Shown: positions 1 through 16,758 of the stretch, one piece after another | How positions within the stretch are numbered: position 1 is the stretch's first letter | Layout: each line of letters begins with the position of its first letter | DNA from: a virus | DNA: 52,514 bases | Reading direction: 5' to 3' (one strand) | IMG/VR virus record: IMGVR_UViG_3300045988_014767 | Span: 1 to 52,514 of that record | Translations under genes and position numbers: made by a program | Notes under the pieces: model-generated | What the model saw: only the letters and a program-made list of their open reading frames with translations | The model's database searches: none | Told to the model about the DNA's origin: nothing

Positions 1-119
1 ATCACGCAACTTGTCGGTCAATTCCTCAACCGCCAACCTGTCATCCTGCTTTCTTGTAAGCAAGCCAAGTTCACGCCCGATTCTGCCAACATGGACATCC
101 AAGGGGATGAACAAAGATG
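1..119. repeat. Terminal direct repeat, left copy (identical to 52396..52514)
   Basis: Base-by-base identity of atcacgcaacttgtcggtcaattcc...gatgaacaaagatg at both ends of the window. Confidence 0.95.
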
Positions 120-702
120 ATGGCTTGACATCATGCCAAATGCCTATATCCACAATGCCATCAGCACGAACCAACCAACGCAACATAAGGTTGAACCGCT
201 TGCAAGCCGAACCGCCCTTGTGTCTGTTGATTGCCGGATTTGAAAGATGCTTGGATGGCTTGCCATCATTTGCATGGATAAACAAACTTCGCAAGGTTTC
301 GATGCCTTTCCACATATCGGGTTGCCCTGCAAATGCAAATTCCAAGGAATCCCATTCATTTGATACGTTGAACGCCCATTGCAAGCCCTTGCACATATAT
401 TGCAAATCCCTGCCAAAGAATGTACGGTGGATGTTGATTTCGGGGTCAATCGTTCGCCAACCATCATCCATCACAAAATCATACGGTTGCCCCTCCATTA
501 CATCAAATAGCATCTTTTGGCATCCGTTCAATATCTGCTTTCGGTTGCCCCATGCTATCAACGCACAAAGGAATGCGGCAACCTCAATATCTTGCTGCTC
601 CGTGAACATCCGGGGGAACTTCACGGGGTCATTTTCAATGAATGCCGGGGTGTTGAACCTTTCAACAAGGGCATCCAATTTGGCTTTCAATTCTTTATTC
701 AT
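1..702 (-). CDS. TIGR02757/DUF2400 family protein (HhH-GPD-like), N-terminal part; the gene wraps the circular junction and ends at 52318
   Basis: Hand translation from ATG at 702 is open to position 1: MNKELKAKLDALVERFNTPAFIENDPVKFPRMF...GGSACKRFNLMLRWLVRADGIVDIGIWHDVKPSSLFIPLDVHVGR... It joins in frame to the 52318..52514 ORF (260 codons in total). The SACKR-LRW-VR and PLDxHV blocks are typical of the family. Confidence 0.75.
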   Translation of the reverse strand, partial: MNKELKAKLDALVERFNTPAFIENDPVKFPRMFTEQQDIEVAAFLCALIAWGNRKQILNGCQKMLFDVMEGQPYDFVMDDGWRTIDPEINIHRTFFGRDLQYMCKGLQWAFNVSNEWDSLEFAFAGQPDMWKGIETLRSLFIHANDGKPSKHLSNPAINRHKGGSACKRFNLMLRWLVRADGIVDIGIWHDVKPSSLFIPLDVHVGRIGRELGLLTRKQDDRLAVEELTDKLRD

Positions 703-761
703 TGTTGCGATTGTTTGCCCCACCGCTCCACATGGTTTTCATGGGAACGGTGGGATTGTGT

Positions 762-1496
762 TTATACTTCAATGATTGCTATATCCGGGGCAATCTGTTT
801 GATTGCTTCCAACTGTTCATCAATAGCCTTGTCCCTCAATTCTTCAATGGTTGCTTGCGCTCCCGGTGACAAAAGCACGAATGCCACTTCACGCCCATCA
901 ATCTTTGCAAAGGTTTCCACCTCCAATGATTCAGGCTTGCCGCCTTTGAAAATGGGGATGTTAAGGTTGAACACCTTGGGCAAGTTTGAATTAACCGTTT
1001 GGGCAAAGTTATCCTTGCGGTTGCCATTCTCTTGAACTTCACGTTCAATCTGGTGGTTCACGGTTGCCGTGAAATTCATCAGCTTTGAAACAAGTTCCAT
1101 GTTTGTTCCCTTGTCGCCAAAAAAGGCACGGTTCATCTTCACGAACAACCCAAGTTCAGTAGGCGACCAAACTTTGCCCGTATTGATACCAAACTCAATA
1201 AACTTGGGATGATATTGCAGTTTGCCGACAACAACGCCACGTTTGTATTCATCGGATTCATTCACAACCAAGGAAATCTTAATTTCCTCACGGTTTACGA
1301 TGATATGGCAATCCTTTTGCTCAAATTGCCCTGCATTGATACGTTTGTTCAAGAACTCACATGGGGCGGTAATAATGCCCTCGATGTTGATTTTCACGGG
1401 TGCTTTGGGGTCAAGCACTTTGGGGGCTGCTCCCTCTCGCAAAATGATTTCATTTTGTCCGGGTGCAAGGTTGATAACCATTTTTTCGTTCTGCAT
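762..1496 (-). CDS. Hypothetical early protein (244 aa)
   Basis: Long ORF co-oriented with and tightly packed against its neighbours. No motif recognised with confidence. Confidence 0.6.
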   Translation of the reverse strand: MQNEKMVINLAPGQNEIILREGAAPKVLDPKAPVKINIEGIITAPCEFLNKRINAGQFEQKDCHIIVNREEIKISLVVNESDEYKRGVVVGKLQYHPKFIEFGINTGKVWSPTELGLFVKMNRAFFGDKGTNMELVSKLMNFTATVNHQIEREVQENGNRKDNFAQTVNSNLPKVFNLNIPIFKGGKPESLEVETFAKIDGREVAFVLLSPGAQATIEELRDKAIDEQLEAIKQIAPDIAIIEV

Positions 1497-1507
1497 AATG
1501 ATGATAT

Positions 1508-1957
1508 TTAATTGTTAGTACATGTTTTATCTGCTTGATTGAAACCACGAACTGCAAAAAGGGTTGGTTGCATTTCATCCGCCGTTGCCGGGCGTTCCTC
1601 CACCAAATCACCCTCCTTATTGTAGAACTCCGTTGTTTTTGTTTCTTGGTCTGTGAAACGGTAACATGGTTCATGCACATATTCGGCTTTTGCCTTGATG
1701 TTAGAAACCATGTTGGCACGGGCTTCTTTCAAGGGTTTCAACCTGCCCTTGTATTTGGATTGCACCTCTTTCAATTCCGCTTCAATCTCTGCAATCTCAA
1801 TGGACACGTTGGCAAGTTTTTCTTTGTGTCCTTGCAACTGCTCCGGGGTATATGCTTTCATGTACCCCTTGTTTTCCACGCCATCCGCATTGTCCTTGAT
1901 GAATTGTTCACGTTGGATGGGATTTGCAATGTCTTTCCCGATTGTTTTGTTGCTCAT
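1508..1957 (-). CDS. Hypothetical coiled-coil protein (149 aa)
   Basis: ORF preceded 9 nt upstream by the recurrent 17-mer motif. Central heptad-like KE-rich segment. Confidence 0.6.
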   Translation of the reverse strand: MSNKTIGKDIANPIQREQFIKDNADGVENKGYMKAYTPEQLQGHKEKLANVSIEIAEIEAELKEVQSKYKGRLKPLKEARANMVSNIKAKAEYVHEPCYRFTDQETKTTEFYNKEGDLVEERPATADEMQPTLFAVRGFNQADKTCTNN

Positions 1958-1966
1958 ACTTCTTTT

Positions 1967-1983
1967 GTTTTATAGTGATACAC
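1967..1983 (-). promoter_or_regulatory. Recurrent 17-mer GTGTATCACTATAAAAC (sense = minus), copy 1
   Basis: One of five near-identical copies, each in sense orientation 9-47 nt upstream of a start codon. Confidence 0.5.
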
Positions 1984-2616
1984 TTATTTGTTAAGTAAGA
2001 AAACCTTGTTGTAAAGGTGGGCGAATTGCTTGCCGAATTGTTCGGCTCGCGATTCCGATTTGAAGCAAAGCCGAGAACCGACAGCCGCATGCGCACCCGT
2101 AGCCGCGTTATCCGTAGACGCAGAGACGAAGCCCGCAGCATCATTGTTGTAAATGAACCAAGGGAAATACTTCCATTGATTTCTATTCGAGAAATCAGGC
2201 ACAAAGCCATCTTCCTTGTTCCATGCTTGTGCGATGGTGAACAACTCATTCAAGGCAATCAATGCTTCAATGTGGCTTGGATTAAGGGATTGCACAAGCC
2301 TTGCAACATCTTCAAGCCTTACCGCATTGCGTGATACCACCTTTTGGGCAACGGTGAAATCCATGTTCGGCTTTCCTCCAAGGCGTTCACGTGCCGTTTC
2401 AAAATCGGTGATTATCTCGTTCACCTCTGTTACTTCAACTTCTTCAAGCAAGAAATCAAAGGGTGTCAAGTAATCATCATCATCCACATCCAAATCCTCG
2501 TTGTGGTTGTTGATGTACTCCATCAGTTCTTCCCCGGCTTCCTTGCGGGTTTTATGCGTGGCAACCATGCAATCTTGTTCGCTGCCATCCGCATATTTGA
2601 TTATAAACTTTTTCAT
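1984..2616 (-). CDS. DGR target protein 2 (210 aa): acidic N-terminal half, VR2 in the C-terminal region
   Basis: C-terminus ...AAGFVSASTDNAATGAHAAVGSRLCF... is encoded by VR2, which matches the TR except at TR adenines. No signal peptide or TM segment seen. Confidence 0.8.
   Translation of the reverse strand: MKKFIIKYADGSEQDCMVATHKTRKEAGEELMEYINNHNEDLDVDDDDYLTPFDFLLEEVEVTEVNEIITDFETARERLGGKPNMDFTVAQKVVSRNAVRLEDVARLVQSLNPSHIEALIALNELFTIAQAWNKEDGFVPDFSNRNQWKYFPWFIYNNDAAGFVSASTDNAATGAHAAVGSRLCFKSESRAEQFGKQFAHLYNKVFLLNK
2042..2056 (-). promoter_or_regulatory. GC hairpin 16 nt 3' of VR2 (GCCGAA-CAA-TTCGGC on the coding strand)
   Basis: 6-bp perfect stem with a 3-nt loop. An analogous hairpin follows VR1. 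Confidence 0.5.
2073..2149 (-). repeat. DGR variable repeat VR2 (77 nt, matches TR 14949..15025)
   Basis: Hand alignment gives 16 differences, all where the TR has plus-strand T (coding-strand A). Confidence 0.8.
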
Positions 2617-2625
2617 GTCTGAAAA

Positions 2626-3369
2626 TTAAAATGGTGATTTATTGAAATTGATTTTCATTCCCGGTGTGGCAATGGAAACCGTTTTGTGTGTTGCTTCCTG
2701 TATGCCATCTTTGAACTCCTTGGCGTTGGCATTACCATCGGAAAGGTGTATCAATACGATGTTATGGACTTGGGACAAATCATTTGCAAGCAAGATTTCC
2801 TTGCACGTGTCAAAGCTGCAATGGCTTTTCATTGTTCTTGCCCTTAACTTGGCTGGCAACAATCCGGCTTCCACATTCGCATCCAAAATGTCTTGTCGGT
2901 AGTTGCATTCAAGCATGATGTTGTTAAGCCCATCAAACATGTATTGCAGATAATAAGTATCAGTTGCAAACAACACCGTGCCACATTCGGGATTTGCGAT
3001 AAGAAACCCGAAAGGTTCATTGGCATCATGTTCAACCTTGAATGGTTGCACTGCAAATTGCGATGAAAGGACATATAAAACACCCTCATCCATTACTTTC
3101 ACCATCGGTTGTGCTTCCAAACCAAGGGCAATGCACGTTCCTTGTGACATATAGCAAGGTATCATGGCATCAAGGCATTTACGCACGTGTTTGGAATGGT
3201 CACCGTGTTCATGGGATATTATGCAAGCCTTGATGCGTTGGATGTCAAAATCCACCGCCTTTTGCACTTCCTTGAACGCAACACCACATTCAATCATCAA
3301 TGCTTCTTTGCCATTGTCCAACAAATAGCAATTGCCCTTGCTGCTTGAACCTAAAATCTTCAATTCCAT
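2626..3369 (-). CDS. MBL-fold metallo-hydrolase (likely nuclease)
   Basis: HxHxDH motif (SHEHGDH). N-terminal KILGSSSKGNCYLL is typical of the beta-lactamase fold. Confidence 0.75.
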   Translation of the reverse strand: MELKILGSSSKGNCYLLDNGKEALMIECGVAFKEVQKAVDFDIQRIKACIISHEHGDHSKHVRKCLDAMIPCYMSQGTCIALGLEAQPMVKVMDEGVLYVLSSQFAVQPFKVEHDANEPFGFLIANPECGTVLFATDTYYLQYMFDGLNNIMLECNYRQDILDANVEAGLLPAKLRARTMKSHCSFDTCKEILLANDLSQVHNIVLIHLSDGNANAKEFKDGIQEATHKTVSIATPGMKINFNKSPF

Positions 3370-3388
3370 GTTCCTTTCGGGTTAATTG

Positions 3389-4369
3389 TTAGAACCCCGG
3401 ATTTGGGGCTTTATTTTCGTTCTCTGCTGCCTTTGCGGTTTCCGTGGGCGTTTCATTTGGCGTGTCGCTTTCGTGCTTAATTTCGCCCGTTTCCGTGTCC
3501 ACAACGGTTTTTTCTCCACCATCATTGCCGGATGTCGGCATATCAAGTGATATGCGCTTGCGGTTAGCATTTTCAGCTTTTTCACGCTCCACCTGTTCCG
3601 TTACATCATCATAATCGGTGTAAATGTCTTGTTGTTCCTCCACGGTACGCATTCCCATTGAAAGTTCCGGGGCATAAGCATTTGTCCACATGGATGCCGC
3701 ACGGTACATCAGCATTTGGCGTGTCATTGTCTGCCACTTGCTGCCATTCTTGGTGTACCATCCCTCTTGTATGGCAAGGCGAACGGAAACGGGGGCGGAT
3801 TCCAACACATTTTCCGAACCTTTCTTGGTGGTGAATGCCACACATTCGATGTCGTGTATCTTTCTGCCATCAAACTGCTTGTTGATGGCTTCCTTGCAAC
3901 GCTTGCTTGGGTTATACACGTAATCGGTATAATCCACCATGCCCAATGCCCCCTTGTCGGTGAACTTGAATTGCAAAGGCTCAAAACGCCCACAAGAATT
4001 GACCGTTGCAATCAGGAACTTTGATGACCACGATGGGCGTCCATAGATAACCGCCATATTCTGCATTACCATCAAAGGGGATGCCCCTATTCGTGTTGAT
4101 ACTTCTACGGCAATCATGCAATTGGCAACCGCCTTGGAACGGGCGGCGGCATTCTCGGCTTGAACCGCTTGCATAACGGCTTCGGATGCTCCTGCCGGAA
4201 TGGGTTTGATAACTGCCCTGTATGTGTCGGGTACAAGGTCACTTGATGCAAACATTTGGCATACTCGTTGCATCGTGTCAAACTGCACGGGGTCAAAGAA
4301 ATTAAACCCTGTTTGTGTGGCTGGCTGCATGGCAACCGTGCCACCATTTGTTTTTTGTAATTCGTTCAT
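3389..4369 (-). CDS. RecT-like single-strand annealing protein
   Basis: Size, position between the ATPase and the nuclease, and RecT-like central/C-terminal blocks (...VIYGRPSWSSKF..., ...MLMYRAASMW...). Charged, low-complexity C-terminal tail. Confidence 0.55.
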   Translation of the reverse strand: MNELQKTNGGTVAMQPATQTGFNFFDPVQFDTMQRVCQMFASSDLVPDTYRAVIKPIPAGASEAVMQAVQAENAAARSKAVANCMIAVEVSTRIGASPLMVMQNMAVIYGRPSWSSKFLIATVNSCGRFEPLQFKFTDKGALGMVDYTDYVYNPSKRCKEAINKQFDGRKIHDIECVAFTTKKGSENVLESAPVSVRLAIQEGWYTKNGSKWQTMTRQMLMYRAASMWTNAYAPELSMGMRTVEEQQDIYTDYDDVTEQVEREKAENANRKRISLDMPTSGNDGGEKTVVDTETGEIKHESDTPNETPTETAKAAENENKAPNPGF

Positions 4370-6330
4370 TGTATTGTTAATTTGTTGTCGTTTGTAACGA
4401 CAAGGTTTATAATTTGGCTTGCTACCGGGATGATTTCATTTACACTTTCTCGGTTGTCAATAAAGATAGGGGCACAAATGCCATAGAAATCACAAAGGGC
4501 GTTTATGATGTCCAATCCGGCATTCACTTGTCCTGCTGTGTTCGCACTTCCATAAGGTACACCATCAACCAAAGGGATGCAAGTTTCAACCGGGTTGCCA
4601 TCCAAGGTGTATTCAAACAAGCGGAATGTTACGAACTTGAACTTTGCGTTGATACGTTTTTCGCATTCCTCAATCTTGGTTTTGGTGAATTGCTCAACCG
4701 TGTATTCTTCTTTTTCGATGTCGGCAATCTGCTGTGCAAGTTCCTTTCCATGCACTTCAAGGGCTTCAATCTCCTTGTGGCAACGCTCGATTGCACCACG
4801 TTTCGCAATGCGTGTGGATATGGCGTTTCGTTTCAACTGCCAATCTGCCTTTTGTTTCTTCAACTCGGTTGTGTCAATCCCCTTGTTGTCGGTTATGATG
4901 GTGGATTGGATGTTTTCAATCTCTTGCATCTTTGCCATATATTCGGGGATTGATTCGGGTTTTATATCCAAAACCGGGACAACCGGGATGGCTTCAAGTT
5001 CCACTTGCTTCTTTGCCAAATCTTCTTTCAGCTTGGCAAGTTCCTTGCGTTGTGTTTCAATGGATGCTTGTATGGTTTCAACCTCTGCATTCATCATTTG
5101 CACTTGTTCGCCCAACTCTTTGCCCTTGGTTGTTATGGCATTCATCTTTTCACTCTTGGTGTTATTGAATATTTCCTTTGCCTTGGCAACCATATCATCG
5201 GGCAATTGTTGTCCGCAATGGGGGCAAGTTGTTTCCCCGGAATACTCCTTTGCATTCTCGGCAAACCATGAGTTGCGCAACGTGTCTTGCTCCGATTTGA
5301 TGGTATCAATACCACGGTGGATTCGTGCGATATTCACTTGTGCGTTATTGGTTTGCTTGACCACATCGGCAATCTCCGCTTCAAGCATCTTGATATTGTT
5401 TTCCAATTCTCGGCGGTTTGCATTGGCTGCAAAGGCATCTTCACGCACCTTGGTTTGTGCTGCAAACATGATTTCTTGGGCTTCATGCTTCAATGTGTTC
5501 ACACGGTTTTGTTTTGCCTGCTCTTGCTCATATTGCTTGCGGATGGCGGCGGTGATGTCGGAAATGCTGTTGTCAATGTCGGCAATCTCCTTGTCAATGC
5601 TTGCCAATTCTGCTTCAAGGGCGGCAAAATCTTCGCTTTCCGGCATCATCTTTTGTGTCTGGTCAATACGTGGTTTGATTTCTTTCAGTTCCTCAACCAA
5701 GCGTTTCTTACGTGCCGAAATTTCCTTTTTGAAATCGGCAAGTGATTTGCCCGAAATCTTATCCATCAGGGCGGCAAACTCCGGCTTGCTTGTCGCAATC
5801 TCGGCATCCGTTACCGCTCCGGCAAGCTGGAACAATTGTTCACGTTGCAATTGCCACTTCATGCCCACGAAAAAGGCGGGATTGGTAAGCATCTTGAAAA
5901 GGTTGGAATCCATGATTTCCTTGATACGTTTGTCGTACTCGGTAACATTCACGGGTGTTTCATTCCACCAACATTCCGTGTGGTTGCCCTTATACACCTG
6001 TTCAACCTGCCCACGGGGTTTCACCCAATCTTCCACGAATGAACGCTTCAAGGTGATTTCCATGCCATCCACATCAATCACACCCGTAACGCTGCACTCG
6101 CATTTGTGTAATTCTTCACCACCCACACGGGTTTTGATTTCATAATCCTTGCGCTCCTTGGCATCCTTGCCGAACAATAGCCAAATAAACGCATCAAAAT
6201 GGCGGCTTTTGCCAAGACCATTGCCGCCGGAAATGGTTGTCACATCGGCATTGAATACCGTTGTGCGTTGCTTTTCCCCCTTAAAGTTGCAAAGGGTAAG
6301 CGATTTCAATGTCACACGTTTCATTGTCAC
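4366..6330 (-). CDS. Rad50/SbcC-like AAA ATPase with long coiled coil and CxxC hook
   Basis: Walker A GGNGLGKS, ~350-aa coiled coil, central CPHCGQ, C-terminal Walker B-like PIFIDNRE. Confidence 0.7.
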   Translation of the reverse strand: MTMKRVTLKSLTLCNFKGEKQRTTVFNADVTTISGGNGLGKSRHFDAFIWLLFGKDAKERKDYEIKTRVGGEELHKCECSVTGVIDVDGMEITLKRSFVEDWVKPRGQVEQVYKGNHTECWWNETPVNVTEYDKRIKEIMDSNLFKMLTNPAFFVGMKWQLQREQLFQLAGAVTDAEIATSKPEFAALMDKISGKSLADFKKEISARKKRLVEELKEIKPRIDQTQKMMPESEDFAALEAELASIDKEIADIDNSISDITAAIRKQYEQEQAKQNRVNTLKHEAQEIMFAAQTKVREDAFAANANRRELENNIKMLEAEIADVVKQTNNAQVNIARIHRGIDTIKSEQDTLRNSWFAENAKEYSGETTCPHCGQQLPDDMVAKAKEIFNNTKSEKMNAITTKGKELGEQVQMMNAEVETIQASIETQRKELAKLKEDLAKKQVELEAIPVVPVLDIKPESIPEYMAKMQEIENIQSTIITDNKGIDTTELKKQKADWQLKRNAISTRIAKRGAIERCHKEIEALEVHGKELAQQIADIEKEEYTVEQFTKTKIEECEKRINAKFKFVTFRLFEYTLDGNPVETCIPLVDGVPYGSANTAGQVNAGLDIINALCDFYGICAPIFIDNRESVNEIIPVASQIINLVVTNDNKLTIQ

Positions 6331-6333
6331 GAA

Positions 6334-6618
6334 TTATTTAGAGTTGTTGAATAATAGCAATGCTTTGTCGGCATCAACCACGATGATACGCCCATGTTGG
6401 GTGATGGCATCATCAATCCGCCCGGATGCCTTGATGCGGTTTGCTGTTGTCATGCTGCAATTGAACAATTGTGCAATCCCGGAAATTCCATACACAAGGC
6501 GTTTCGTTTGCTCCGGTTTTTTTTCAATCACCGGGGCTTGTGCCTTGGCAATCAAATCCATCAGTTGCCCAACGGTTAAATCAATAATCCTTGTTTCTGG
6601 TGTGATTGTGCCAACCAT
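6334..6618 (-). CDS. DUF3853-like HTH DNA-binding protein
   Basis: YGISGIAQLFNCSMTTANRIKASGRIDDAITQHGRIIVVDADKAL resembles the Bacteroidales DUF3853 HTH family. Confidence 0.55.
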   Translation of the reverse strand: MVGTITPETRIIDLTVGQLMDLIAKAQAPVIEKKPEQTKRLVYGISGIAQLFNCSMTTANRIKASGRIDDAITQHGRIIVVDADKALLLFNNSK

Positions 6619-6629
6619 AATTTCATGTT

Positions 6630-6851
6630 TTAATCATCAAACATATCTTCTTCCTCAAAGTAATCAGGAACGGGAATGCTTTGCATTTTCCATCCCGGTA
6701 TTACCACGTTAATCACTTCGATAAGATACACCCACAATGGGGCATCCACTGTTGAACAAAGCAAGCACAAGGCGATACAGAACCACCACACGATTGCTTT
6801 TTGTTTCCACGTTAAACCTTTAAGAAAAAGGGCATCTTTCAATTCTTTCAT
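6630..6851 (-). CDS. Small membrane protein (73 aa, two hydrophobic helices, acidic tail)
   Basis: AIVWWFCIALCLLCS and LWVYLIEVINVVIPGW segments. Confidence 0.5.
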   Translation of the reverse strand: MKELKDALFLKGLTWKQKAIVWWFCIALCLLCSTVDAPLWVYLIEVINVVIPGWKMQSIPVPDYFEEEDMFDD

Positions 6852-6862
6852 TGTTGCGAAAA

Positions 6863-7240
6863 TTAAAATTCATAATCTGTTAATCCATCCGCTTTGCGGC
6901 GGCTGCTCATGCGGCTTACTCTGCACGGGGTGTTGCGAACCCGGATAACCACATTGTCAAATCTCATCATTTGGGGTATCAGCACGGCAAGCAAGCAAAG
7001 TGAAATTATCTTGCGCCTTAATGGTGACAAATCAAATGATATGTGGAATGTCGTGCAAAACCACCACGCGGACAACTCATTTACCTTTTCACACCCGGTT
7101 TTGATGAATATGTTCCGGGCGTGGTTTTCAACTGTACGTTCCGAAATGAAAAGGCGATTTGCAATGTCCTTTTTGCTTGCGCCCCATGCGAACAATTCCG
7201 CAATTTCGGATTCGCGTTTGGTAAGTTTTACGGTTTCCAT
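6863..7240 (-). CDS. LuxR/GerE-type HTH regulator with C-terminal hydrophobic segment
   Basis: LTKRESEIAELFAWGASKKDIANRLFISERTVENHARNIFIKTG is a GerE HTH. The METVK start abuts the upstream stop. A IISLCLLAVLIP segment follows. Confidence 0.65.
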   Translation of the reverse strand: METVKLTKRESEIAELFAWGASKKDIANRLFISERTVENHARNIFIKTGCEKVNELSAWWFCTTFHISFDLSPLRRKIISLCLLAVLIPQMMRFDNVVIRVRNTPCRVSRMSSRRKADGLTDYEF

Positions 7241-7241
7241 A

Positions 7242-7460
7242 TTATTCCCCCCACACGTCTTTGATGCCGTACTTGGCGAATACCTTTTCCACATTGTGCG
7301 CTTCAAGCACATTCGGGATGACATTGCCTTTCAACCGCTGCAAGAACGCCGCGCGCGTTGTTACGTTGAATGCTTCCATCAGTTCACGGCGACATGCCGC
7401 GATGTCCGCTTGGCGCAACTGCAACCAACCCTTGTTAAATGAAAACTGTTCTTTACTCAT
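7242..7460 (-). CDS. Small early protein (72 aa), paralog of the C-terminal domain of the adjacent HNH protein
   Basis: EQFSF..GW.Q.RQ.D...QRL.GN..P...F.K.GI...WG pattern shared with residues ~125-194 of the 7467..8051 product. Confidence 0.6.
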   Translation of the reverse strand: MSKEQFSFNKGWLQLRQADIAACRRELMEAFNVTTRAAFLQRLKGNVIPNVLEAHNVEKVFAKYGIKDVWGE

Positions 7461-7466
7461 ATAATT

Positions 7467-8051
7467 TTAGTTTTGCGGAACTCCCCAAATTTGGGTTATT
7501 CCATGTTTATGAAATATTTCTTCAATCTTCCAATACTCCGTTATCTTGGGTTCTATGTTTCCATATAAGCGTTGATACCATGAAACTTTTTGTTTGAGGT
7601 TCAAGGATGTAAGAATTTCATCCTTTACCTCTTGCAAATCGGATTGGCGAACTTGTGACCATCCAAGCAAGAATGAAAATTGTTCATGCCCCGGAATCAC
7701 TTTGCATCCATCGTAAGCACCAATTTCATACGCTTTCTTTGTGTTATCAGAATATGTAACCCATTCAAGATTATCAACTCGGTTGTTGTGCTTATTTCCA
7801 TCAATATGATTCACGCATGGATAATTATTCGGATTTGGCAAAAATGTTTCAGCAATAATACGGTGTACACAAACATCTTTCCGAACTTTGTTCATATCAT
7901 ACAACTTGGTTATTGTGTAATTATGCCCACCATCTGTTCTTGGAATGCCGATGCGCTTATATGGCTTCCCATTACGGATTTTATATATAAAACCGTATGT
8001 TGATGCCATATACAAGCCCTCATAACCTTTAATTTCCTTAAATTCTTCCAT
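7467..8051 (-). CDS. NUMOD4/HNH homing-type endonuclease fused to a copy of the neighbouring 72-aa domain
   Basis: IKGYEGLY...(NUMOD4-like), VNHIDGNKHNNRVDNLEWVT (HNH_3). C-terminal 70 aa are homologous to the 7242..7460 product. Confidence 0.7.
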   Translation of the reverse strand: MEEFKEIKGYEGLYMASTYGFIYKIRNGKPYKRIGIPRTDGGHNYTITKLYDMNKVRKDVCVHRIIAETFLPNPNNYPCVNHIDGNKHNNRVDNLEWVTYSDNTKKAYEIGAYDGCKVIPGHEQFSFLLGWSQVRQSDLQEVKDEILTSLNLKQKVSWYQRLYGNIEPKITEYWKIEEIFHKHGITQIWGVPQN

Positions 8052-8078
8052 GTATTCTTCAAATTGAGTATTTTTTGC

Positions 8079-8111
8079 TATTTTTGCGAGTTAATTATTT
8101 ATTTACCTTTG
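8079..8111 (+). promoter_or_regulatory. Two plus-strand -7 boxes (TATTTTTG 8079..8086, TACCTTTG 8104..8111) upstream of the XRE regulator
   Basis: Match to the Bacteroides TAnnTTTG consensus in the divergent intergenic region. Confidence 0.45.
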
Positions 8112-8133
8112 CATTGTTTTTAATTCCGTGCTG

Positions 8134-8141
8134 CAAATGTA
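8134..8141 (-). promoter_or_regulatory. Minus-strand -7 box (TACATTTG) for the leftward early operon
   Basis: CAAATGTA on the plus strand is TAnnTTTG on the minus strand. It lies downstream of the rightward boxes, so the transcripts would overlap. Confidence 0.4.
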
Positions 8142-8210
8142 CGGATTAAATTCGGATTGTGCAAACATTATCAGAATTATTTTCGGATTTAATATAAAAA
8201 AGATACGTAT

Positions 8211-8612
8211 ATGGGCAATAAAGACGAAAAAAACGCCATTCGTGAATGGATTGAAACCATTAAATACAAGAAAAGGATGACCCAACAAGACATTGCAAAA
8301 GAATTGGGTGTGTCCAAAACATATCTATCCGATGTTATTACGGGGCGTTCCCCTTATTCGGATAAACTAAAACAAAGGCTTTCCGAACTCTATTCGGATT
8401 GCATTGTTGATTCCCCAGTCATGTATGGCGGAAATGTGGAACAAGCCAACGTAATGGGCGACAACATCAAGAATGCCGCCGATACCGGGATGCAAAGCGA
8501 ATTATCCAAGTTGATTGATTTGCTTGCGTCCAAGGAATTGTCGTTGCAAAAGGCGCAAGAACACATTGACCGCCTGTTGGCAATCATTGATAATCTCACA
8601 AAACAAGGATAA
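8211..8612 (+). CDS. XRE-family HTH regulator (CI-like candidate, no S24 peptidase domain)
   Basis: MTQQDIAKELGVSKTYLSDVITGRS is an HTH_3 motif. The C-terminal part is coiled-coil-like. Confidence 0.7.
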   Translation: MGNKDEKNAIREWIETIKYKKRMTQQDIAKELGVSKTYLSDVITGRSPYSDKLKQRLSELYSDCIVDSPVMYGGNVEQANVMGDNIKNAADTGMQSELSKLIDLLASKELSLQKAQEHIDRLLAIIDNLTKQG

Positions 8613-8614
8613 GA

Positions 8615-8809
8615 ATGGAAACAATCACAATCAACGTTGCCGATTATTATGGCAACCCATCTTATTATTCGGTCATGCCGGATGCCATATTTGATGCCCT
8701 TGAATTGGCATCGCTCAAAGGTGAACAAACAACCGACATCAACAAAGAATTGTTTGATGCCATGATTGAAGCATACAAAACCAAGATGGCACAATGGGAA
8801 AGCAAGTGA
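8615..8809 (+). CDS. Hypothetical protein (64 aa)
   Basis: ORF tightly coupled to the upstream gene. Confidence 0.45.
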   Translation: METITINVADYYGNPSYYSVMPDAIFDALELASLKGEQTTDINKELFDAMIEAYKTKMAQWESK

Positions 8810-9231
8810 AAAACTATTGGATTGCACTTGCATTGATATTTTTGCAATTGCTTAGTGGGTGTTCTTCATCAGATGACGATACGCCCGATGTGGCATTGTC
8901 CGACATATCCGGGGTATGGCTTGAATATGCTTACTTGTGTTCGGATGGTTATTTCGTGGACATATCAGATACCGGGGATTGCATATACTTTGACTTTGCA
9001 CGCCCAAATACGTTCAATCAATACACAATCAATGATGGGCAAAAGGAAATGTCAATGCAAGGCACATGGACATTCAACCCCGAAACAAGCATGGCAAGCA
9101 TCAAAGAACCGCGTGGATGGGATTTGGAAATTTCATTCACTTTCAAGGATGCCAACGATGCCACATTATATATAATAGGTAAGACTGACAATCAGACAAG
9201 AACAATCAAAGCCAAACGCATAAGCCAATGA
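8794..9231 (+). CDS. Lipoprotein (145 aa), lysogeny-module moron
   Basis: Signal peptide with lipobox LLSGC followed by SSSDDD. Confidence 0.65.
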   Translation: MGKQVKNYWIALALIFLQLLSGCSSSDDDTPDVALSDISGVWLEYAYLCSDGYFVDISDTGDCIYFDFARPNTFNQYTINDGQKEMSMQGTWTFNPETSMASIKEPRGWDLEISFTFKDANDATLYIIGKTDNQTRTIKAKRISQ

Positions 9232-9539
9232 AAAAGTCTATCAACCCAAAGGCAATTGAAATCCAACGGCGATTCTTCGCGGCTTTGGAACTTGTTATTG
9301 CATCAAAGCAATTGAAAGGCTTGAAAACCTTTTGTGAAAGCCATGATTTGAACCGAACCAAGTATTCACGCATAAAAAATGAATTGGATAAGCCACTTGA
9401 AGCGACAAAATACAAAATGATTGATTTGGATGCCCTTGCCGCCCTGTGTTCGGATTTCGGGGTCAATCCTGAATGGCTGTTGCTTGGCATTGGGGATATG
9501 TTGAAAAAGGATAAGCCATGCACATCAAGAAAAAAATAA
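9228..9539 (+). CDS. Second repressor-like HTH protein (103 aa)
   Basis: C-terminal ...LAALCSDFGVNPEWLLLGIGDM resembles CI/C2-type HTH domain ends. Confidence 0.5.
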   Translation: MKKSINPKAIEIQRRFFAALELVIASKQLKGLKTFCESHDLNRTKYSRIKNELDKPLEATKYKMIDLDALAALCSDFGVNPEWLLLGIGDMLKKDKPCTSRKK

Positions 9540-10795
9540 AATTCTTACTCCACAAGCGTAATCCAAACCAATTGACAAACCTTGCCATCCGCTTGCGCAT
9601 TACGCTTCATGGAGAACGCCCCTTGGACTTTCCAACTGGGCATAATATAGACATCACGGATTGGGATGCCGAAAAGGGGCGTGCCTTGCCCTCTTGCAAA
9701 GCTGCATCAGACATCAACCGCACCATTGATGAATGGATATCTATTTGCAATGAAATCTTCGCCCGTTATGAACTTCTTGAAAAGCGCATACCGACACCGG
9801 GCGAAATCAAGGATTTGTTCAATGATATGGTGGGGAGAAAGACAAAGTCGAATGCCGGGTTGCCATCCGTGAATGATGGCTTTTTTCCCGTGTTTGATGT
9901 GTTCACAAATGAAATGGGAAATCAAAATCAATGGACATCATCAACACATCAAAAGTTCAATGCCTTGCGGCAACATCTTAAATTGTATGATGCAAAATTA
10001 TCCTTTCCGACAATAACGGAAAGCAAGTTGCAAGGATATGTGGATTATCTGTTGAAAAAGGGATTGAGGAACACGACAATTGCCAAGAACCTTGCCTTTT
10101 TGCGTTGGTTCTTGCGTTGGGCTGCAAAGAAAGGCTATTATCAAGGCACGTTGCATGATACTTTCAAGCCTAAATTAAAGGGCATTGATGGAAATTCCAA
10201 GGAAATAATCTTCTTAACCCGTGACGAAATTTCACGCCTTGAATCTTGGCAATTTGCACCTACACAAGAAAGCCTTGCACGTGTCCGGGATGTGTTCTTG
10301 TTCTGCTGCTTTACCGGGTTGCGTTATTCGGATGTCGCCAAACTCAAACGTGCCGACATCAAGGATGGATTTATTGATGTAGTCACACAAAAAACAAATG
10401 ATGGATTGCGTATTGAGTTGAACAAGCATTCACAAGCAATATTGGACAAATACAAGGATGAAAACATCCGTGGTGGGCTTGCATTGCCTGTTATCTCAAA
10501 CGTGAAAATGAACGTGCAATTGAAAGCAATGGGGCAAGTTTGCGGAATCGATGAACCAACAAGAATTATATATTTCCATGGAAATGAAAGGCATGAACAA
10601 GTATTGCCGAAATGGGCATTGCTCACGACACATTGCGGGCGGCGAACCTTTGTTGTTACCGCCTTGCAACTTGGCATCCCAAGTGAGGTGATTATGAAAT
10701 GGACTGGGCATTCAGATATGAAAGCCATGAAACCTTATATGGCAATCGTGGATGAACTCAAAGCCCGTGCAATGTCAAGGTTTGATGAATTTTGA
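9518..10795 (+). CDS. int: Tyrosine site-specific integrase (Bacteroidales phage/ICE type)
   Basis: N-terminal arm-binding-like region, SAM-like core, catalytic-domain blocks TGLRYSD, HCGRRTF, WTGHSDMKAMKPYMAIV. Confidence 0.85.
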   Translation: MHIKKKIKFLLHKRNPNQLTNLAIRLRITLHGERPLDFPTGHNIDITDWDAEKGRALPSCKAASDINRTIDEWISICNEIFARYELLEKRIPTPGEIKDLFNDMVGRKTKSNAGLPSVNDGFFPVFDVFTNEMGNQNQWTSSTHQKFNALRQHLKLYDAKLSFPTITESKLQGYVDYLLKKGLRNTTIAKNLAFLRWFLRWAAKKGYYQGTLHDTFKPKLKGIDGNSKEIIFLTRDEISRLESWQFAPTQESLARVRDVFLFCCFTGLRYSDVAKLKRADIKDGFIDVVTQKTNDGLRIELNKHSQAILDKYKDENIRGGLALPVISNVKMNVQLKAMGQVCGIDEPTRIIYFHGNERHEQVLPKWALLTTHCGRRTFVVTALQLGIPSEVIMKWTGHSDMKAMKPYMAIVDELKARAMSRFDEF

Positions 10796-10799
10796 TGAT

Positions 10800-10851
10800 G
10801 TACACGAAAAATGGAACAAAAACCCATGTACACGATTTTGTACACGATTTT
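10800..10851 (+). repeat. Three direct GTACACGA(A/T)(A/T)(A/T) repeats (putative integrase arm sites, left set)
   Basis: gtacacgaaaa at 10800; tgtacacgatttt at 10827 and 10839. Confidence 0.55.
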
Positions 10852-10954
10852 AACGCCCTCAAATGGTATTGTGTGGTATTGTAAAACACCGATGGAAAAG
10901 GCGAAAAGCCTTGTTTTCTGCAAAATGGCATTTCGTGGAATTGTACTTTATCAA

Positions 10955-10978
10955 GGGTTTGACTTCCCCTCTCTCCGC
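10955..10978 (+). other. Candidate attP core resembling the 3' end of a tRNA-Ser (T-loop-like TTTGACT, acceptor TCTCTCC, discriminator G)
   Basis: gggtttgacttcccctctctccgc compared with the canonical GGTTCGAATCC-CTCTCTCCG-CCA. It lies between the two arm-repeat sets. No full cloverleaf is present. Confidence 0.35.
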
Positions 10979-11011
10979 AATAAACATTGATTTTCAATGA
11001 TTTACTAAATT

Positions 11012-11035
11012 TGTACACGAAAATGTACACGAAAC
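11012..11035 (+). repeat. Two tandem TGTACACGAAA(A/C) repeats (putative arm sites, right set)
   Basis: tgtacacgaaaa at 11012 and tgtacacgaaac at 11024, in the same orientation as the left set. Confidence 0.55.
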
Positions 11036-11065
11036 GCCCGAATTTTAACACTTTCGGGCGTTTTT
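11032..11065. terminator. Bidirectional-type intrinsic terminator hairpin
   Basis: 11-bp stem aaacgcccgaa/ttcgggcgttt, 10-nt loop, A-tract 5' and T-tract 3'. Confidence 0.55.
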
Positions 11066-11102
11066 CATTATTAAAAATCAGGCACCACCCCATAAGATTG
11101 AA

Positions 11103-11150
11103 GCCCGGCAAAACCGGGCTTCTGCATTGTTCCCCGGTGCAACTCCGGGG
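11103..11150 (-). terminator. Two GC hairpins downstream of the lysis cassette
   Basis: gcccgg-caaaa-ccgggc (11103..11119) and ccccgg-tgcaact-ccgggg (11132..11150). Weak U-tracts. Confidence 0.4.
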
Positions 11151-11226
11151 CTTTCGCAACAATGTGAGTGCAAAGTTAATGGATTTTTCATAAAATCTTG
11201 CGTATTCCTGCAAGTATCTTTCTAAT

Positions 11227-11736
11227 TCAATCCAAAATGGGCATTCTTTTCCAATATAACACCAAGGCAAGTGCAATCACGGCAATGCAAGCCCAACGCC
11301 AATTGAATGATGATGTTTTTGTGGCTTCTTGCTTTTGGATGTGGTTTTGCTGCTTTGACAACTCCGCATTTTCTTGCGTTTCCTCGCTTTCCTTGGATTC
11401 GTTGCTTTTGCCGCTTTGTTCCACACCTTTTTCAATGATTGTTTGCTTGATGCCCTTGATTGCTCCCTTGACATTGCCAAAGGTAGGCAAACGGACATCC
11501 GCCATTGGTGGTGTATCTGTTGCCGTATCAGGGGCAAAAAATGTGATTTCGGTGATTGTTACCTTGCCCGTTTCCGTGCGTGTGGTGTCAATCGCCCGTT
11601 GTTCCCTCTCGATGCGTGCCGATGATGCCGCCACGCTGTCCACGTTGCTTTTGTCGCTCTGGCTTTCCATGTTCCGGGTTGCCCGGCATGACACAAGGGC
11701 AATAAGCAAAATCAGGTATGAAAGAAACTTTCCCAT
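11227..11736 (-). CDS. Unimolecular spanin candidate (N-terminal lipoprotein signal plus C-terminal TM)
   Basis: MGKFLSYLILLIALVSC lipobox and C-terminal WACIAVIALALVLYW. Sits immediately after the endolysin. Confidence 0.6.
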   Translation of the reverse strand: MGKFLSYLILLIALVSCRATRNMESQSDKSNVDSVAASSARIEREQRAIDTTRTETGKVTITEITFFAPDTATDTPPMADVRLPTFGNVKGAIKGIKQTIIEKGVEQSGKSNESKESEETQENAELSKQQNHIQKQEATKTSSFNWRWACIAVIALALVLYWKRMPILD

Positions 11737-11738
11737 AA

Positions 11739-12332
11739 TCACAACTTTTTGATGTCCTGCAAACGGTTCAACCACCCCTTGATAAAACGCTTTTGGGTGT
11801 ACTTCAACAATTCCGCATCGGTTGCCTTTCGCCCAATCTTCTTTTCATAGGCTGCAACACTGTTTGAAACAATGGCATTCAAGAACTTCACACGTTCTTG
11901 ATATATCGCATCAAACAATTCTTCGGGGTCTGCAAAGTTCACCGCCGAAAGGGTTTTATCTCCAACGATGCCATCAACCTTGACCCCAAGCAATGCTTGC
12001 GGCTTCTTGATGCCGTGGATGCCTGACCCCCAAACCCAATCAACAAGGATGTTGGCAACCTTTTGGGAATGGATGTCATCGGCTTTCCATTTATCCCAAA
12101 ACATAGTTTTCACTATCTCGCGCCAATGGGCATCGGGTATGTTCTTCAAGCGTTCCACCGTTGGGCGTGGATAACCCTTGCGTTTGCAATATGCTTCATA
12201 CGTTGCCAAGGTAACGCCCTTGTTTGTAGCCCCGCCCCTGTCGGTGGGGTCATTCACAAATCCGCCCTCCCATTTAAGGATGAACGGAATCAACTTATCA
12301 ATGTTTGCCATCTTCGTTGTCTTTTGGTTCAA
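11739..12332 (-). CDS. Endolysin, GH108-type muramidase with PG-binding C-terminal domain
   Basis: [28 protein letters not shown] is the GH108 signature. The start may be the internal MANIDK at 12311. Confidence 0.8.
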
Positions 12333-12903
12333 TGTATGATGGACATTTTGTTACATCACAATGTACCTTACCACGATAAGCACATACCATGTTGCCGCAA
12401 CGGGGTTTTATCTCCGGCGGTTGTGGTTGTTCCTCTTTCAATTCGTGCAAGTCGATGTCAAAATGCCTTTCCGTTTTATCCACCATTATGCGCTGGGCAA
12501 TCTTCGCCCACTTTGCATCATTGCAACTTGATTCATTTTCAAGCATTGACCAAATTTGCCAAAAGCACACCGCCCCGGCAACGATTTGGGGCAAATGCAA
12601 GGAAACTTCGGGAAATACCATCACATCAATCAGATGCACAAGTATTGTCAAGGAATACACCTTGATAAGCGTTACAAAGACACGCCCGGCATAGTTGGAT
12701 TTGAATTTTCCATCATTCGCACCGGGAAATCTTTTCTTCACTCTCTTTGACAACGCCCAAGCCGTGTAACAATCAGCAAGCACGGCAAGGGTACACACAA
12801 GGATGAATGGGAACGTGGGACGGATAACCGCAATGCACGCACCAACCAAACCCATAATGTGTTTGCCAAAGAACGAAACGATTGTTGAATGAATGTTCGT
12901 CAT
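12298..12903 (-). CDS. Holin (holin_4_1-like) with Cys-rich cytoplasmic C-terminal extension
   Basis: Three hydrophobic helices and a WSMLENESS block. The ~60-aa tail has C-x5-C-x8-C-x5-C. Confidence 0.65.
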
Positions 12904-12912
12904 AACTTGAAA

Positions 12913-13323
12913 TCATGTAAAATGAAACATCTTGCCAACCTTTGCGATTGTGGTGTCAAACACAATGAAATCCACGGGCGGCAAGCCTTTTTGCAACCGT
13001 TCCGTTTTCCATGCTTGTTGCACCTGTTTCATTTCAGCCATCAAGTTATCTGACCCGGTAAAAACTGAACGGCGTGTGCCAACCACTTTCCCAAATTCAT
13101 CCTTGACAAAATAATCCCCATTCTCATCGGGGGTATCACGGAATTGGGCATCTGGCACAACTTGCATTTGCATACGCATCCCGGATGCGTTCTTTCCCGG
13201 AAATTTGGTTGGCTCGATTTTGGCTTTCTCAATGACAATTCTTTTGTCAAATAGTTCATCCAAATCAATGCCTTTACCAATTATCGCATCCGTTTCAATG
13301 TTGGAATCGCAAAATCTTGGCAT
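12913..13323 (-). CDS. Hypothetical protein (136 aa)
   Basis: Co-oriented ORF between the RT and the holin. Confidence 0.5.
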   Translation of the reverse strand: MPRFCDSNIETDAIIGKGIDLDELFDKRIVIEKAKIEPTKFPGKNASGMRMQMQVVPDAQFRDTPDENGDYFVKDEFGKVVGTRRSVFTGSDNLMAEMKQVQQAWKTERLQKGLPPVDFIVFDTTIAKVGKMFHFT

Positions 13324-13337
13324 AATTCACACACTCT

Positions 13338-13727
13338 TTAATTGTCCGACAAATCCTTGATGATTTTGGCATCCAAATCCTCGGTAAACTGCAAGTATTC
13401 CTTGTATTCGGCAACTGCCGCTTCATTTGGGGCAATGCCCAAAACGTGTTTGTTGTACGAATTGACCAAGGAAAATTCCGCCGTTTCATCAATGACGGAA
13501 CGGATGAAAGCACGCTTCAAGTTTGCCTTGTTGGGTTTGTCAAACGTGCGTACCTCATAGCATTTCCACCCGATTTGCGTTTCCTCGGTCTGCCCCTCCG
13601 GGATTCCCATTTCGGGTTCAATGTTGATTCGGTACACTGTTGAACCATCGTTATCATGTTCGATAACTGCCGGAATGCCATGCGCCATGTCATAATGGGC
13701 GTTTGGCTCTATCGAATTTAATTTCAT
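13338..13727 (-). CDS. Hypothetical protein (129 aa), overlaps the RT 3' end by 38 nt
   Basis: Co-oriented ORF. It does not look like an Avd four-helix bundle. Confidence 0.5.
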   Translation of the reverse strand: MKLNSIEPNAHYDMAHGIPAVIEHDNDGSTVYRINIEPEMGIPEGQTEETQIGWKCYEVRTFDKPNKANLKRAFIRSVIDETAEFSLVNSYNKHVLGIAPNEAAVAEYKEYLQFTEDLDAKIIKDLSDN

Positions 13728-14787
13728 ACGGAAATGAATTTGAAAGTTTGTTGAAAAAATGAATCGAATTTGAATACTTGCACCATCCCCACCAACTGCA
13801 AATGGCTTGCTTGTACTGCTCTTTCGTTGGTTTCTTCTTGCGCTTGTTCAACTTCGCCACCCGGCGGCAAAGATTTTGTTTGATGTTCTTGCGCAACAAC
13901 GTATGGGTGTGATAAAACACGAAACCAAGGAAATCAATGCCCCGTTTGTCCACGGGGAACACTTGATAATTACGTTTCACCTTTAATTGCAGCTTGCAGA
14001 AATAAGCCCGGATTTCGTGCAAAAGGTCATGCAATGATTGCTTGTCAGGTGCAAGGATAACAATATCATCGGCATATCGCCAATAATACTTTACGCGCTT
14101 TGCTTCCTTTATCCAATGGTCAAAGTATGCCAAGAACAAATTGGCAAAGTATTGGGAAAGATAATTGCCGATTGGCACGCCGTTCAATGATGTTGCCACC
14201 ATTTCACCCGTTTCAATGTCCGTGACAAAGTTTCGGATTGGCAAATCAGTGTTGGCGGATGAATCAATGATTTCATCCAACAATGCCAAAAGGCGATTAT
14301 CTTTTATCTTTCGCCTTACCACAATTTTCAACACTTCATGGTTGATTGATGGATAAAACTTGCGGACATCTATTTTTAAGCAATACTTTGTTCCCTCCTT
14401 GTCTTTCTTCAATGCCTTTTTCAAATCCTTGGCACAAGCATGGATGCCACGCTTCTTGATGCAAGAATATGTGTTGCCATTGAACACGGACACCCATATT
14501 GGTTCAAGGATGTTCATTACCGCATGATGCAAGATTCTGTCGGGAAAGTATGGCAATTGATAGATTTGCCGCTCCTTTGGTTCAAAAATCGTGAAAACGT
14601 GATATTTTGATGTCTTGAATGTTCCGTTTTTCAAACTCTCATGCAATGCAAGGATGTTGGCATCCCTGTTCTTGTCGTGCTGCTGCACACCATAGGAACG
14701 CAACTTGCCCTTGCGGGCTTTCTCATCCGCAAGTTTCAAGTTTTCCAAGGATATGACCTTTTCAAAAAGATTGCCAATTCTTTTCAT
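13690..14787 (-). CDS. DGR reverse transcriptase
   Basis: YADD catalytic motif (YWRYADDIVILA), DGR-typical GVPIGNYLSQYFANLFL block, N-terminal FEKVISLENLKLADEKARKGK. Confidence 0.9.
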   Translation of the reverse strand: MKRIGNLFEKVISLENLKLADEKARKGKLRSYGVQQHDKNRDANILALHESLKNGTFKTSKYHVFTIFEPKERQIYQLPYFPDRILHHAVMNILEPIWVSVFNGNTYSCIKKRGIHACAKDLKKALKKDKEGTKYCLKIDVRKFYPSINHEVLKIVVRRKIKDNRLLALLDEIIDSSANTDLPIRNFVTDIETGEMVATSLNGVPIGNYLSQYFANLFLAYFDHWIKEAKRVKYYWRYADDIVILAPDKQSLHDLLHEIRAYFCKLQLKVKRNYQVFPVDKRGIDFLGFVFYHTHTLLRKNIKQNLCRRVAKLNKRKKKPTKEQYKQAICSWWGWCKYSNSIHFFNKLSNSFPYEIKFDRAKRPL

Positions 14788-14948
14788 TGTCTTTCAAGTT
14801 TGCTTGTATATTAGGATTCTTCGGGTTGCCCCTACCAAAACCGTTCAACTTATTCTATTTTCTGCCGCCGGGCTTCTGTTCCCGGCTCATTCAACCCCGG
14901 ATGGGTTGTTTTTGTGGCAAGGTTTCCGATTAGCAACTATATTTTTAC

Positions 14949-15064
14949 AAGCATAGCTGAGAACCGATATTCGCATTCGCATTCGTAGCCGTGTTATTCG
15001 TATTCGCATAGACGAAGCCTGCATTCGCCGTATTATTCGCATTACCGCTGAACAAAACGCCACG
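14949..15064 (-). repeat. DGR template repeat (TR), 116 nt
   Basis: Non-coding copy between the target gene and the RT. The coding-strand reading RGVLFSGNANNTANAGFVYANTNNTATNANANIGSQLC has 10 AAY codons and 30 adenines. Confidence 0.9.
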
Positions 15065-15123
15065 ACACGGACAACCTTATTTTTTTCATTCAATCACACC
15101 GACATATCGGAATGGGCGATTTG

Positions 15124-15136
15124 GGCGTTTCACGCC
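15124..15136 (-). promoter_or_regulatory. GC hairpin 18 nt 3' of VR1 (GGCGT-GAA-ACGCC on the coding strand)
   Basis: 5-bp stem with a 3-nt loop, at an offset similar to the hairpin after VR2. Confidence 0.45.
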
Positions 15137-16732: not shown

Positions 16733-16743
16733 ATTTTTGTTTG

Positions 16744-16751: not shown

Positions 16752-16758
16752 CATTATT

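Follow-up and report, generated by a model that had tools for sequence, protein, structure and literature searches.

The stretch of DNA analysed here (the window, 52,514 nucleotides of a virus record) belongs to a phage of gut Bacteroidales and carries a 119-nt terminal direct repeat, which indicates that the genome is circular and, in the window, circularly permuted, with a unit of 52,395 bp. A DGR cassette is encoded on the minus strand and encompasses a tail protein gene with a variable repeat (VR1), a template repeat (TR) and a reverse transcriptase (RT); the spacer between TR and VR1 is only 90 nt long (Table 1). The RT contains the DGR hallmark motifs IGNYLSQ, at residue 206, and YADD, at residue 238. 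The VR1 target shows a weak FGE-sulfatase match (E=0.017), and a homologue of this phrog_5302 protein is called 'tail collar fiber protein' by one source. Among the ORFs flanking the RT (12913-13727 and 14788-15154), no Pfam, PHROG or NCBIfam match to an Avd accessory gene was found; two small ORFs 3' of the RT encode acidic products (pI 4.75 and 5.86) without a known family, unlike the basic Avd. Avd is optional, being present in some DGRs and absent from others. Megablast of positions 1-20000 of the window found no close relative among GenBank phages.

An A-tolerant scan of both strands identified three copies of the repeat in the window, namely, TR, VR1 and a second variable repeat, VR2, located near the 3' end of an ORF that encodes a 210-aa protein. 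Because the genome unit is circular, VR2 is separated from the TR by 12.8 kb one way and by 39.5 kb the other, in agreement with the approximately 13 and 39 kb from the RT given in the original prediction. VR2 and the corresponding segment of the TR differ at 16 of the 77 positions, and each of the 16 differences falls on one of the 22 coding-strand adenines of that segment (P = 5.5e-12 for such a distribution arising by chance). The substitutions are A to G at nine sites, A to C at five and A to T at two. VR2 is in frame with the AAY codons of the TR, seven of which are encoded in the segment, and the homology ends at TR 15026, where C stands opposite A. The alignment thus reproduces the TR span, the number and the nature of the differences and the abrupt stop at a non-A mismatch that were originally described, but moves VR2 by 10 nt: the span of 2073-2149 given for it was off, and the ungapped alignment places it at 2063-2139.

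The VR2 gene is part of a block of genes transcribed in one direction that includes an HNH endonuclease, a sigma/HTH regulator, the SbcC-like ATPase, RecT, the MBL-fold hydrolase, the VR2 gene itself and, 26 nt further downstream, phrog_12688 and DUF2303 genes. Past the circle junction, the same block continues with a replication initiator, a DnaC-like loader, Ant and methyltransferases; it runs divergently from a repressor and an integrase. Scans for sigma-70 promoters and for terminators, which are uninformative for Bacteroidota, detected no convincing terminator between or around the genes of the VR2 operon. The order SbcC, RecT, MBL, VR2 gene is retained in more than 50 related loci (53-95% protein identity), the hosts in the genome records being Prevotella, Parabacteroides and other Bacteroidales. 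This synteny bears out the setting that had been proposed for the gene, between an MBL-fold hydrolase and small early genes and outside the virion genes. A non-structural, early and cytoplasmic role of the VR2 protein is predicted from the gene context and, as a prediction, is well supported.

Table 1 Features of the DGR cassette, the remote VR2 gene and its operon in the window
Feature	Position	Strand	Description
VR2 target gene	1984-2616	-	210-aa soluble protein, phrog_11581
Tentative hairpin GCCGAA-CAA-TTCGGC	2032-2046	-	16 nt downstream of VR2
VR2	2063-2139	-	77-nt block corresponding to TR 14949-15025; ungapped alignment; codons 160-185 of 210
IMH-like 3' element GGTTCTCGGCTTTGCTT	2063-2079	-	identical in VR1 and VR2; TR has GGTTCTCAGCTATGCTT, two fixed differences
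Hypervariable core of VR2	2082-2123	-	17 adenine-templated sites in 11 codons (165, 167-171, 173, 174, 176, 178, 179)
5' homology block TGCGGGCTTCGTCT	2124-2137	-	14 nt; TR homology ends upstream
MBL-fold hydrolase	2626-3369	-	upstream operon partner; 9-nt gap to VR2 gene
RecT-like	3389-4369	-	upstream operon partner
SbcC-like ATPase	4366-6330	-	upstream operon partner
DGR reverse transcriptase	13690-14787	-	RVT_1, E=3.7e-19; phrog_1423
Template repeat (TR)	14949-15064	-	116 nt; VR1 takes all 116, VR2 only 14949-15025
VR1 target, 442-aa tail protein	15130-16458	-	phrog_5302
VR1	15155-15270	-	3' end of tail protein gene; 19 mismatches, 19/19 at TR adenines

Variation of VR2 and boundaries of the homing tract

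A search of 5.8 billion proteins with the VR2 protein as the query yielded 4,954 homologous 90% clusters. In an alignment of the best 120 of these clusters (78-94% identical, nearly all 207-210 aa), the entropy peaks at residues 165, 167, 169, 170, 171, 173, 174, 176, 178 and 179, which correspond to the TR codons TAT, AAT, AAT, AAC, ACG, ACG, AAT, AAT, AAT and ATC, respectively. The sets of residues found at these peaks among the 120 homologues fit the expectation from NNT, TNT, NCG and NTC, and the difference rate is 0.75 per VR codon compared to 0.10 per site elsewhere. Using the neighbouring SbcC-like protein as the query, we also gathered 72 related viral loci, which were complemented by genome contigs and GenBank phage records. 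The 56 VR2 alleles of related phages collected in this way include 54 unique ones; all four bases are represented at almost every one of the 17 adenine-templated sites, with one base missing at three of them, whereas the non-A positions are almost invariant. The coding capacity of the hypervariable core amounts to 4^5 x 15^6, that is, about 1.2e10 peptides.

Five relatives (loci L002, L024, L030, L050 and L073) contain TR, VR1 and VR2 all within one locus. In each of these, VR2 and its cognate TR are distinguished by 9-17 differences, every one of them at an adenine, such that no non-A difference between VR2 and TR is found in six genomes. Lineage-specific non-A changes in the TR, such as GGCTTCGTC to GGGTTCGTG and ACGGCT to ACGCCG, are mirrored in the VR2 of the same lineage, which indicates concerted evolution by homing rather than drift. 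A relative that is 98% identical to the window (L002) differs from it at 17 nucleotides in the VR2 gene, with 13 of the 17 located inside the VR2 block. Judging by this variation between genomes in the population, VR2 appears to be an active target, at present or in the recent past. Two observations had been named in advance as speaking against such activity, invariance of VR2 across relatives and non-A drift indicative of a relic; neither was made, given the near-uniqueness of the alleles and the way the non-A positions follow the cognate TR, and both the gene and its VR are conserved among the relatives. With the mismatches restricted to adenines and the hypervariability in relatives, the original prediction that the TR serves a further target, which is remote and shorter, holds up, and we are very confident that VR2 is a genuine DGR target.

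All 62 VRs compared (56 VR2 and 6 VR1 alleles) have the same 3' element, GGTTCTCGGCTTTGCTT, whereas the TR counterpart reads ...CAGCTA...; among 11 TR-class sequences, A is present at the first distinguishing position in all 11 and at the second in 9. In the Bordetella phage BPP-1, IMH/IMH* is a 3' element that tells VR from TR. By analogy, GGTTCTCGGCTTTGCTT could be an IMH-like homing signal that marks a VR as the recipient. At the opposite end of the tract, homology 5' of the variable core is limited to the 14-nt block, and the non-A changes from C to G that the TRs of relatives carry at positions 9 and 15 of the VR2 block are mirrored in VR2. The 5' end of the cDNA is likely to be resolved into VR2 at this block, in which case VR2 takes only the 3' two-thirds of the TR. 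That VR2 shares the 3' end of the TR but has a 5' boundary of its own, as noted originally, is apparent both in the window and in the alleles of its relatives.

Although 11 of the 16 differences in the window fall among the 17 hypervariable adenines, the other five, at block positions 1, 2, 6, 68 and 72, are fixed or nearly so across the VR alleles. At the 5' edge, positions 1-2 change AAT to GCT (codon 160), and position 6 changes GCA to GCG, a synonymous substitution; at the 3' end, positions 68 and 72 change CAG CTA to CGG CTT. The adenine of the GCA codon (TR 15020; VR2 2134; VR1 15226) is replaced by G in 53 of the 56 VR2 and 5 of the 6 VR1 alleles, and the equally synonymous change from CTA to CTT (TR 14954; partner site 14958) is fixed in every VR. 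These fixed synonymous changes are left unexplained by random adenine mutagenesis combined with protein-level selection; the 3' pair (14954 and 14958) may represent IMH/IMH*. We also considered a conserved hairpin following the VRs, as in BPP-1. Candidates are present downstream of VR2 (Table 1) and 18 nt downstream of VR1 (GGCGT-GAA-ACGCC), but this possibility was set aside, given the weak conservation in relatives and the overlap with a conserved protein motif, which implies coding constraint.

The VR2 protein and the phrog_11581 family

The VR2 protein consists of an N-terminal alpha/beta domain (approximately residues 1-62), an acidic linker (residues 41-75) and a C-terminal domain (approximately residues 86-210) that bears the VR. 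The linker contains 14 D/E and no K/R, in line with the acidic N-terminal half pointed out previously, and the C-terminal half is basic. The maximum hydropathy in a 19-residue window (KD19) is 0.87, so that no TM helix or signal-like N-terminus is discernible and the protein looks soluble, as had been proposed. A DNA-mimic or Gam-like role of the acidic linker was a thought only, for which we found no supporting evidence.

AlphaFold2 produced confident models, with a pLDDT of 89.3 for the whole protein and of 89.0 for residues 86-210. The C-terminal domain is modelled as two helices, followed by a long beta-hairpin and a loop of lower confidence, which contain the first half and the remainder of the VR, respectively, and by two terminal helices. 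To our knowledge, nearly all DGR targets adopt the CLec fold. Sequence-profile searches of Pfam, NCBIfam and PDB with the VR2 protein retrieved no CLec, FGE, DUF1566 or any other match, and Foldseek searches of PDB with the full model and with the C-terminal domain produced no match better than E=0.6, so that the description of the C-terminal part as 'lectin-like' in the original prediction finds no backing in either the profile or the structure comparison. The order of elements in the modelled domain (beta, alpha, alpha, beta-hairpin, loop) could nevertheless correspond to a reduced CLec. In BFVD, Foldseek matched uncharacterised phage proteins only and no structural-protein fold. One of these BFVD matches is a crAss-like protein (E=2.5e-5), and residues 1-40 (2497-2616) of the VR2 protein share 60% identity with the beginning of a hypothetical protein from the crAss-like IAS virus; together, these similarities indicate that the N-terminal domain is common to Crassvirales.

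When the VR2 family was compared with the family of the VR1 tail protein using hhalign, 42 VR columns were aligned and nothing beyond them, suggesting that the same TR-encoded peptide is carried by two otherwise unrelated proteins. The features of an Mtd-like tail protein are accordingly missing: there is no homology beyond the VR, and the gene is located 12.8 kb from the tail module.

The VR2 protein matches phrog_11581 (E=4.5e-20), a family that includes at least 1,098 representative clusters (50% identity) at E<=1e-3. The N-terminal parts of its members vary, and the conserved C-terminal module has the form ...W.K.DGFVPDF...Q.KYFPW...VR...GSRLCF...QFG.QF; in the longer members, no informative N-terminal domains were found, only repeated phrog_11581 units. 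DGR targets of the phrog_11581 type reside in replication, recombination or methyltransferase modules of at least four lineages of Bacteroidales phages.

Among the only annotated phage relatives of the window protein is a LoVEphage protein (OY725593, 57015-57599) that is 31% identical over residues 79-210 (BLASTP E=7e-14; tblastn 30.7%, 2e-6). This gene contains a VR of the LoVEphage TR, in which essentially all mismatches as far as the 3' boundary fall on TR adenines, and is surrounded by genes for four methyltransferases, a Lar-like protein, a Holliday junction resolvase and a tRNA ligase. Based on these sequence comparisons, the window gene appears to be a distant member of the same phrog_11581 family as the LoVEphage target. 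Quimbyvirus and LoVEphage have each been reported to share about 95% identity with one and the same B. dorei prophage (CP011531) and so probably represent one phage type. For Quimbyvirus, two DGR targets have been described, one after the tail fibre genes and a remote, non-structural one ('ORF 80/84') in a defence-related island, and CLec was reported by HHpred for the Quimbyvirus homologue (Benler et al. 2021, PMC8008677). The window phage resembles Quimbyvirus/LoVEphage in combining one target in the tail module with a second, remote target among non-structural genes, but differs in its backbone (52 kb with an SbcC/RecT/MBL module as opposed to about 71-75 kb with methyltransferases and tRNA ligase), in its RT (a single ORF, frameshifted in Quimbyvirus/LoVEphage), in the use of 77 of the 116 nt of the TR by VR2 and in the N-terminal domain of the target, which is distinct from that of the LoVEphage protein.

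The operon arrangement of the window is also seen in Bacteroides phage Versailles (ON453897), an inducible prophage of B. caecimuris I48 (PMC10197239), in which sigma, SbcC, RecT and MBL genes are followed by a phrog_11581 member (10181-10762). This gene contains a remote VR; the DGR to which it belongs lies about 43 kb away, beside a tail protein. Here, adenines account for 14 of the 15 differences between VR and TR, and the remaining one is a T-to-G change near the 3' boundary. In contrast to the window, the VR2 of Versailles spans the whole TR (about 100 nt), and the RTs of the two phages are only 39% identical. In the literature searched, we found no mention of the Versailles gene as a DGR target. 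Its product is deposited in GenBank as a 'tail protein', an annotation that probably reflects similarity in the VR segment only.

A different organization is seen in a Bacteroidales prophage (L081; MAG OY759717, 9809-12447), where three tandem phrog_11581 genes each contain a VR that matches one TR (approximately 11307-11390), with A-only mismatches within the repeat in all three, and are followed by an RT that is 57% identical to the window RT and by two DNA methyltransferases; the RT-adjacent targets are, in this case, all non-structural phrog_11581 paralogues. A Ginsengibacter contig (L084) resembles this prophage in having phrog_11581 as the RT-adjacent target. The window lineage lacks about 22 residues, including a 'VLWGG' strand, that are present in LoVEphage and Versailles, which fits its shorter VR, and the short form with the NQWKYFPW lead-in has its own dedicated TR in L081 and L084.

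Compared to better known systems, the window phage shares with BPP-1 (Mtd, TR, Brt, IMH) the adenine-specific transfer from TR to VR, the location of the VR at the 3' end of an ORF, the IGxxxSQ motif of the RT and a 3' element that separates VR from TR. In BPP-1, however, the only target is an RT-adjacent tail-fibre protein whose C-type lectin fold has been solved, and an Avd accessory protein is present, whereas in the window phage there is a second target that is remote and non-structural, no Avd could be recognised and CLec was not detected in the VR2 protein. Several VRs served by one TR, some of them kilobases away, are also known from Legionella, Treponema denticola and Bacuni phages (Wu et al. 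2018; Hedzet et al. 2021, PMC8143477), but the targets in those systems are paralogous surface or adhesin-like proteins, whereas the two targets in the window have only the VR segment in common.

Diversification of a putative early gene product: proposed explanation and alternatives

Under established DGR biology, the TR would be transcribed, its RNA copied by the RT into cDNA with misincorporation opposite adenines, and the cDNA would then replace a variable repeat; GGTTCTCGGCTTTGCTT on both VRs would be read as the homing signal, and the 5' end of the transfer tract in VR2 would resolve at 2124-2137. The expected outcome is randomisation of the 17 adenine-templated sites in 11 codons, independently of VR1. 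Produced within the infected cell, the VR2 protein would then act as a hypervariable ligand binder that most plausibly engages a polymorphic factor of the host or of a competitor phage in the course of phage-host conflict. Taken as a whole, this explanation, in which VR2 is a currently or recently active second DGR target within a soluble phrog_11581 protein that has a putative intracellular role in conflict, seems to us highly probable. Points that weigh against it are the absence of a recognisable Avd gene, the lack of a C-type lectin match for the domain bearing the VR, the 'tail protein' label of the Versailles homologue and the five fixed A-site differences, two of them synonymous, for which simple random mutagenesis does not account. 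As for the putative target inside the cell, the gene context might hint at a defence or restriction component. More speculatively, phrog_11581 could be a repertoire of DGR-diversified intracellular binders, antibody-like in that they neutralise or sense polymorphic host immunity proteins or else exclude competing phages, built on a compact scaffold that is not recognisably CLec and constituting the sole purpose of the DGR in some phages (L081); we put this forward only tentatively.

If the VR2 protein had an accessory function in the virion or in adsorption, for example as a second receptor-binding factor, and its gene just happened to lie away from the structural module, its diversification would serve host range, like that of VR1. 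Such a role would be in keeping with the templating of VR2 by the same TR as the VR of the tail protein, with the cross-match between phrog_11581 and the VR segment of that protein and with the GenBank label of the Versailles homologue. Yet the profile-profile alignment of the two families covers the VR columns alone, the modules to which the gene belongs in four phage lineages are devoted to recombination, replication or methyltransferases, Foldseek revealed no structural-protein fold in BFVD or PDB, and no oligomerisation or attachment domain was recognised in this small acidic protein, all of which makes a virion role unlikely.

VR2 could also owe its variation to repeated gene conversion from VR1 instead of direct retrohoming. 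VR1 and VR2 are, after all, 77-nt direct repeats, and hybrid VR2::VR1 junctions in some contigs imply that these repeats can recombine or be joined. Gene conversion should make the two VRs of one genome more alike than those of different genomes, but they agree at 6.8 of the 17 sites within a genome and at 6.9 of the 17 between genomes, which indicates that they diversify independently and led us to reject conversion as the source of the variation; moreover, VR2 itself carries a complete IMH-like element, and in L081 members of the family are the only targets and are adjacent to the RT. We regard this route as highly improbable. An even less credible possibility is that VR2 is a decayed relic of past homing, or a product of chance or faulty assembly. 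The shortness of VR2 relative to VR1 and the fixation of 5 of the 16 differences could be taken to suggest decay, but the restriction of mismatches to adenines, with zero non-A differences in six genomes, the co-variation of non-A positions with the TR, the diversity of the alleles (54 of 56 unique), the chance probability of about 5e-12 and the conservation of gene and VR over a range of 53% to 95% protein identity are incompatible with such an origin, and it was rejected as well.

Phage DGRs are usually perceived as host-range devices that act on tail fibres. A conserved and actively hypermutated soluble protein encoded in an early operon points to a second arena, that is, accelerated evolution inside the infected cell. 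The notion of intracellular evolution has been raised once before, for Quimbyvirus. The premise of the original prediction that phage DGR targets are tail proteins overlooks the non-structural target of that phage (Benler et al. 2021, PMC8008677), to which the window protein is homologous, so that the central idea of the prediction has a precedent and is not new. What the present analysis adds is that this known class of target turns out to be a large, widespread and coherent family, represented in at least four lineages of Bacteroidales phages and sometimes the sole target of the DGR. Remote targets were outside the scope of large DGR surveys (Roux 2021), and phrog_11581 targets have probably been under-counted for this reason. 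The question of evolution inside the infected cell could be addressed in a cultivable system, phage Versailles, whose host B. caecimuris I48 belongs to the OMM12 consortium.

In several loci, the VR2 gene is retained up to residue 185 and joined, at the VR, to the 3' flank of VR1, the TR and the RT. This configuration is found in L077 (5987-7093; Prevotella sp. MGM2, NZ_BEWW01000299) and L019 and, independently, in L011 (4245-6059). The gene order in the fused loci is repressor, HNH, sigma, SbcC, RecT, MBL, VR2::VR1, TR, RT and lysis genes, without structural genes, and in L077 and L019 only residues 1-69 of the RT are retained. The fused loci look like the result of a deletion of about 39 kb between the direct VRs of an integrated prophage, leaving a cryptic remnant; in L011, the fusion is possibly a simple assembly collapse at the repeat.

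Elsewhere in the window, clusters of motifs with an 11-nt period (TGCAATGCAAATGCA-like) are present at 35681-35869 and 51857-52176, and also at 33825-33857 and 45129-45173. These clusters resemble iterons or operators; one of them is located in a divergent intergenic region and another within the replication-initiator gene (51578-52321). Beside the tail genes, an ORF of 1,659 aa (17005-21984) contains four tandem repeats of about 450-470 nt that are 70-96% identical to each other and presumably correspond to domain repeats in a large tail fibre or adhesin.
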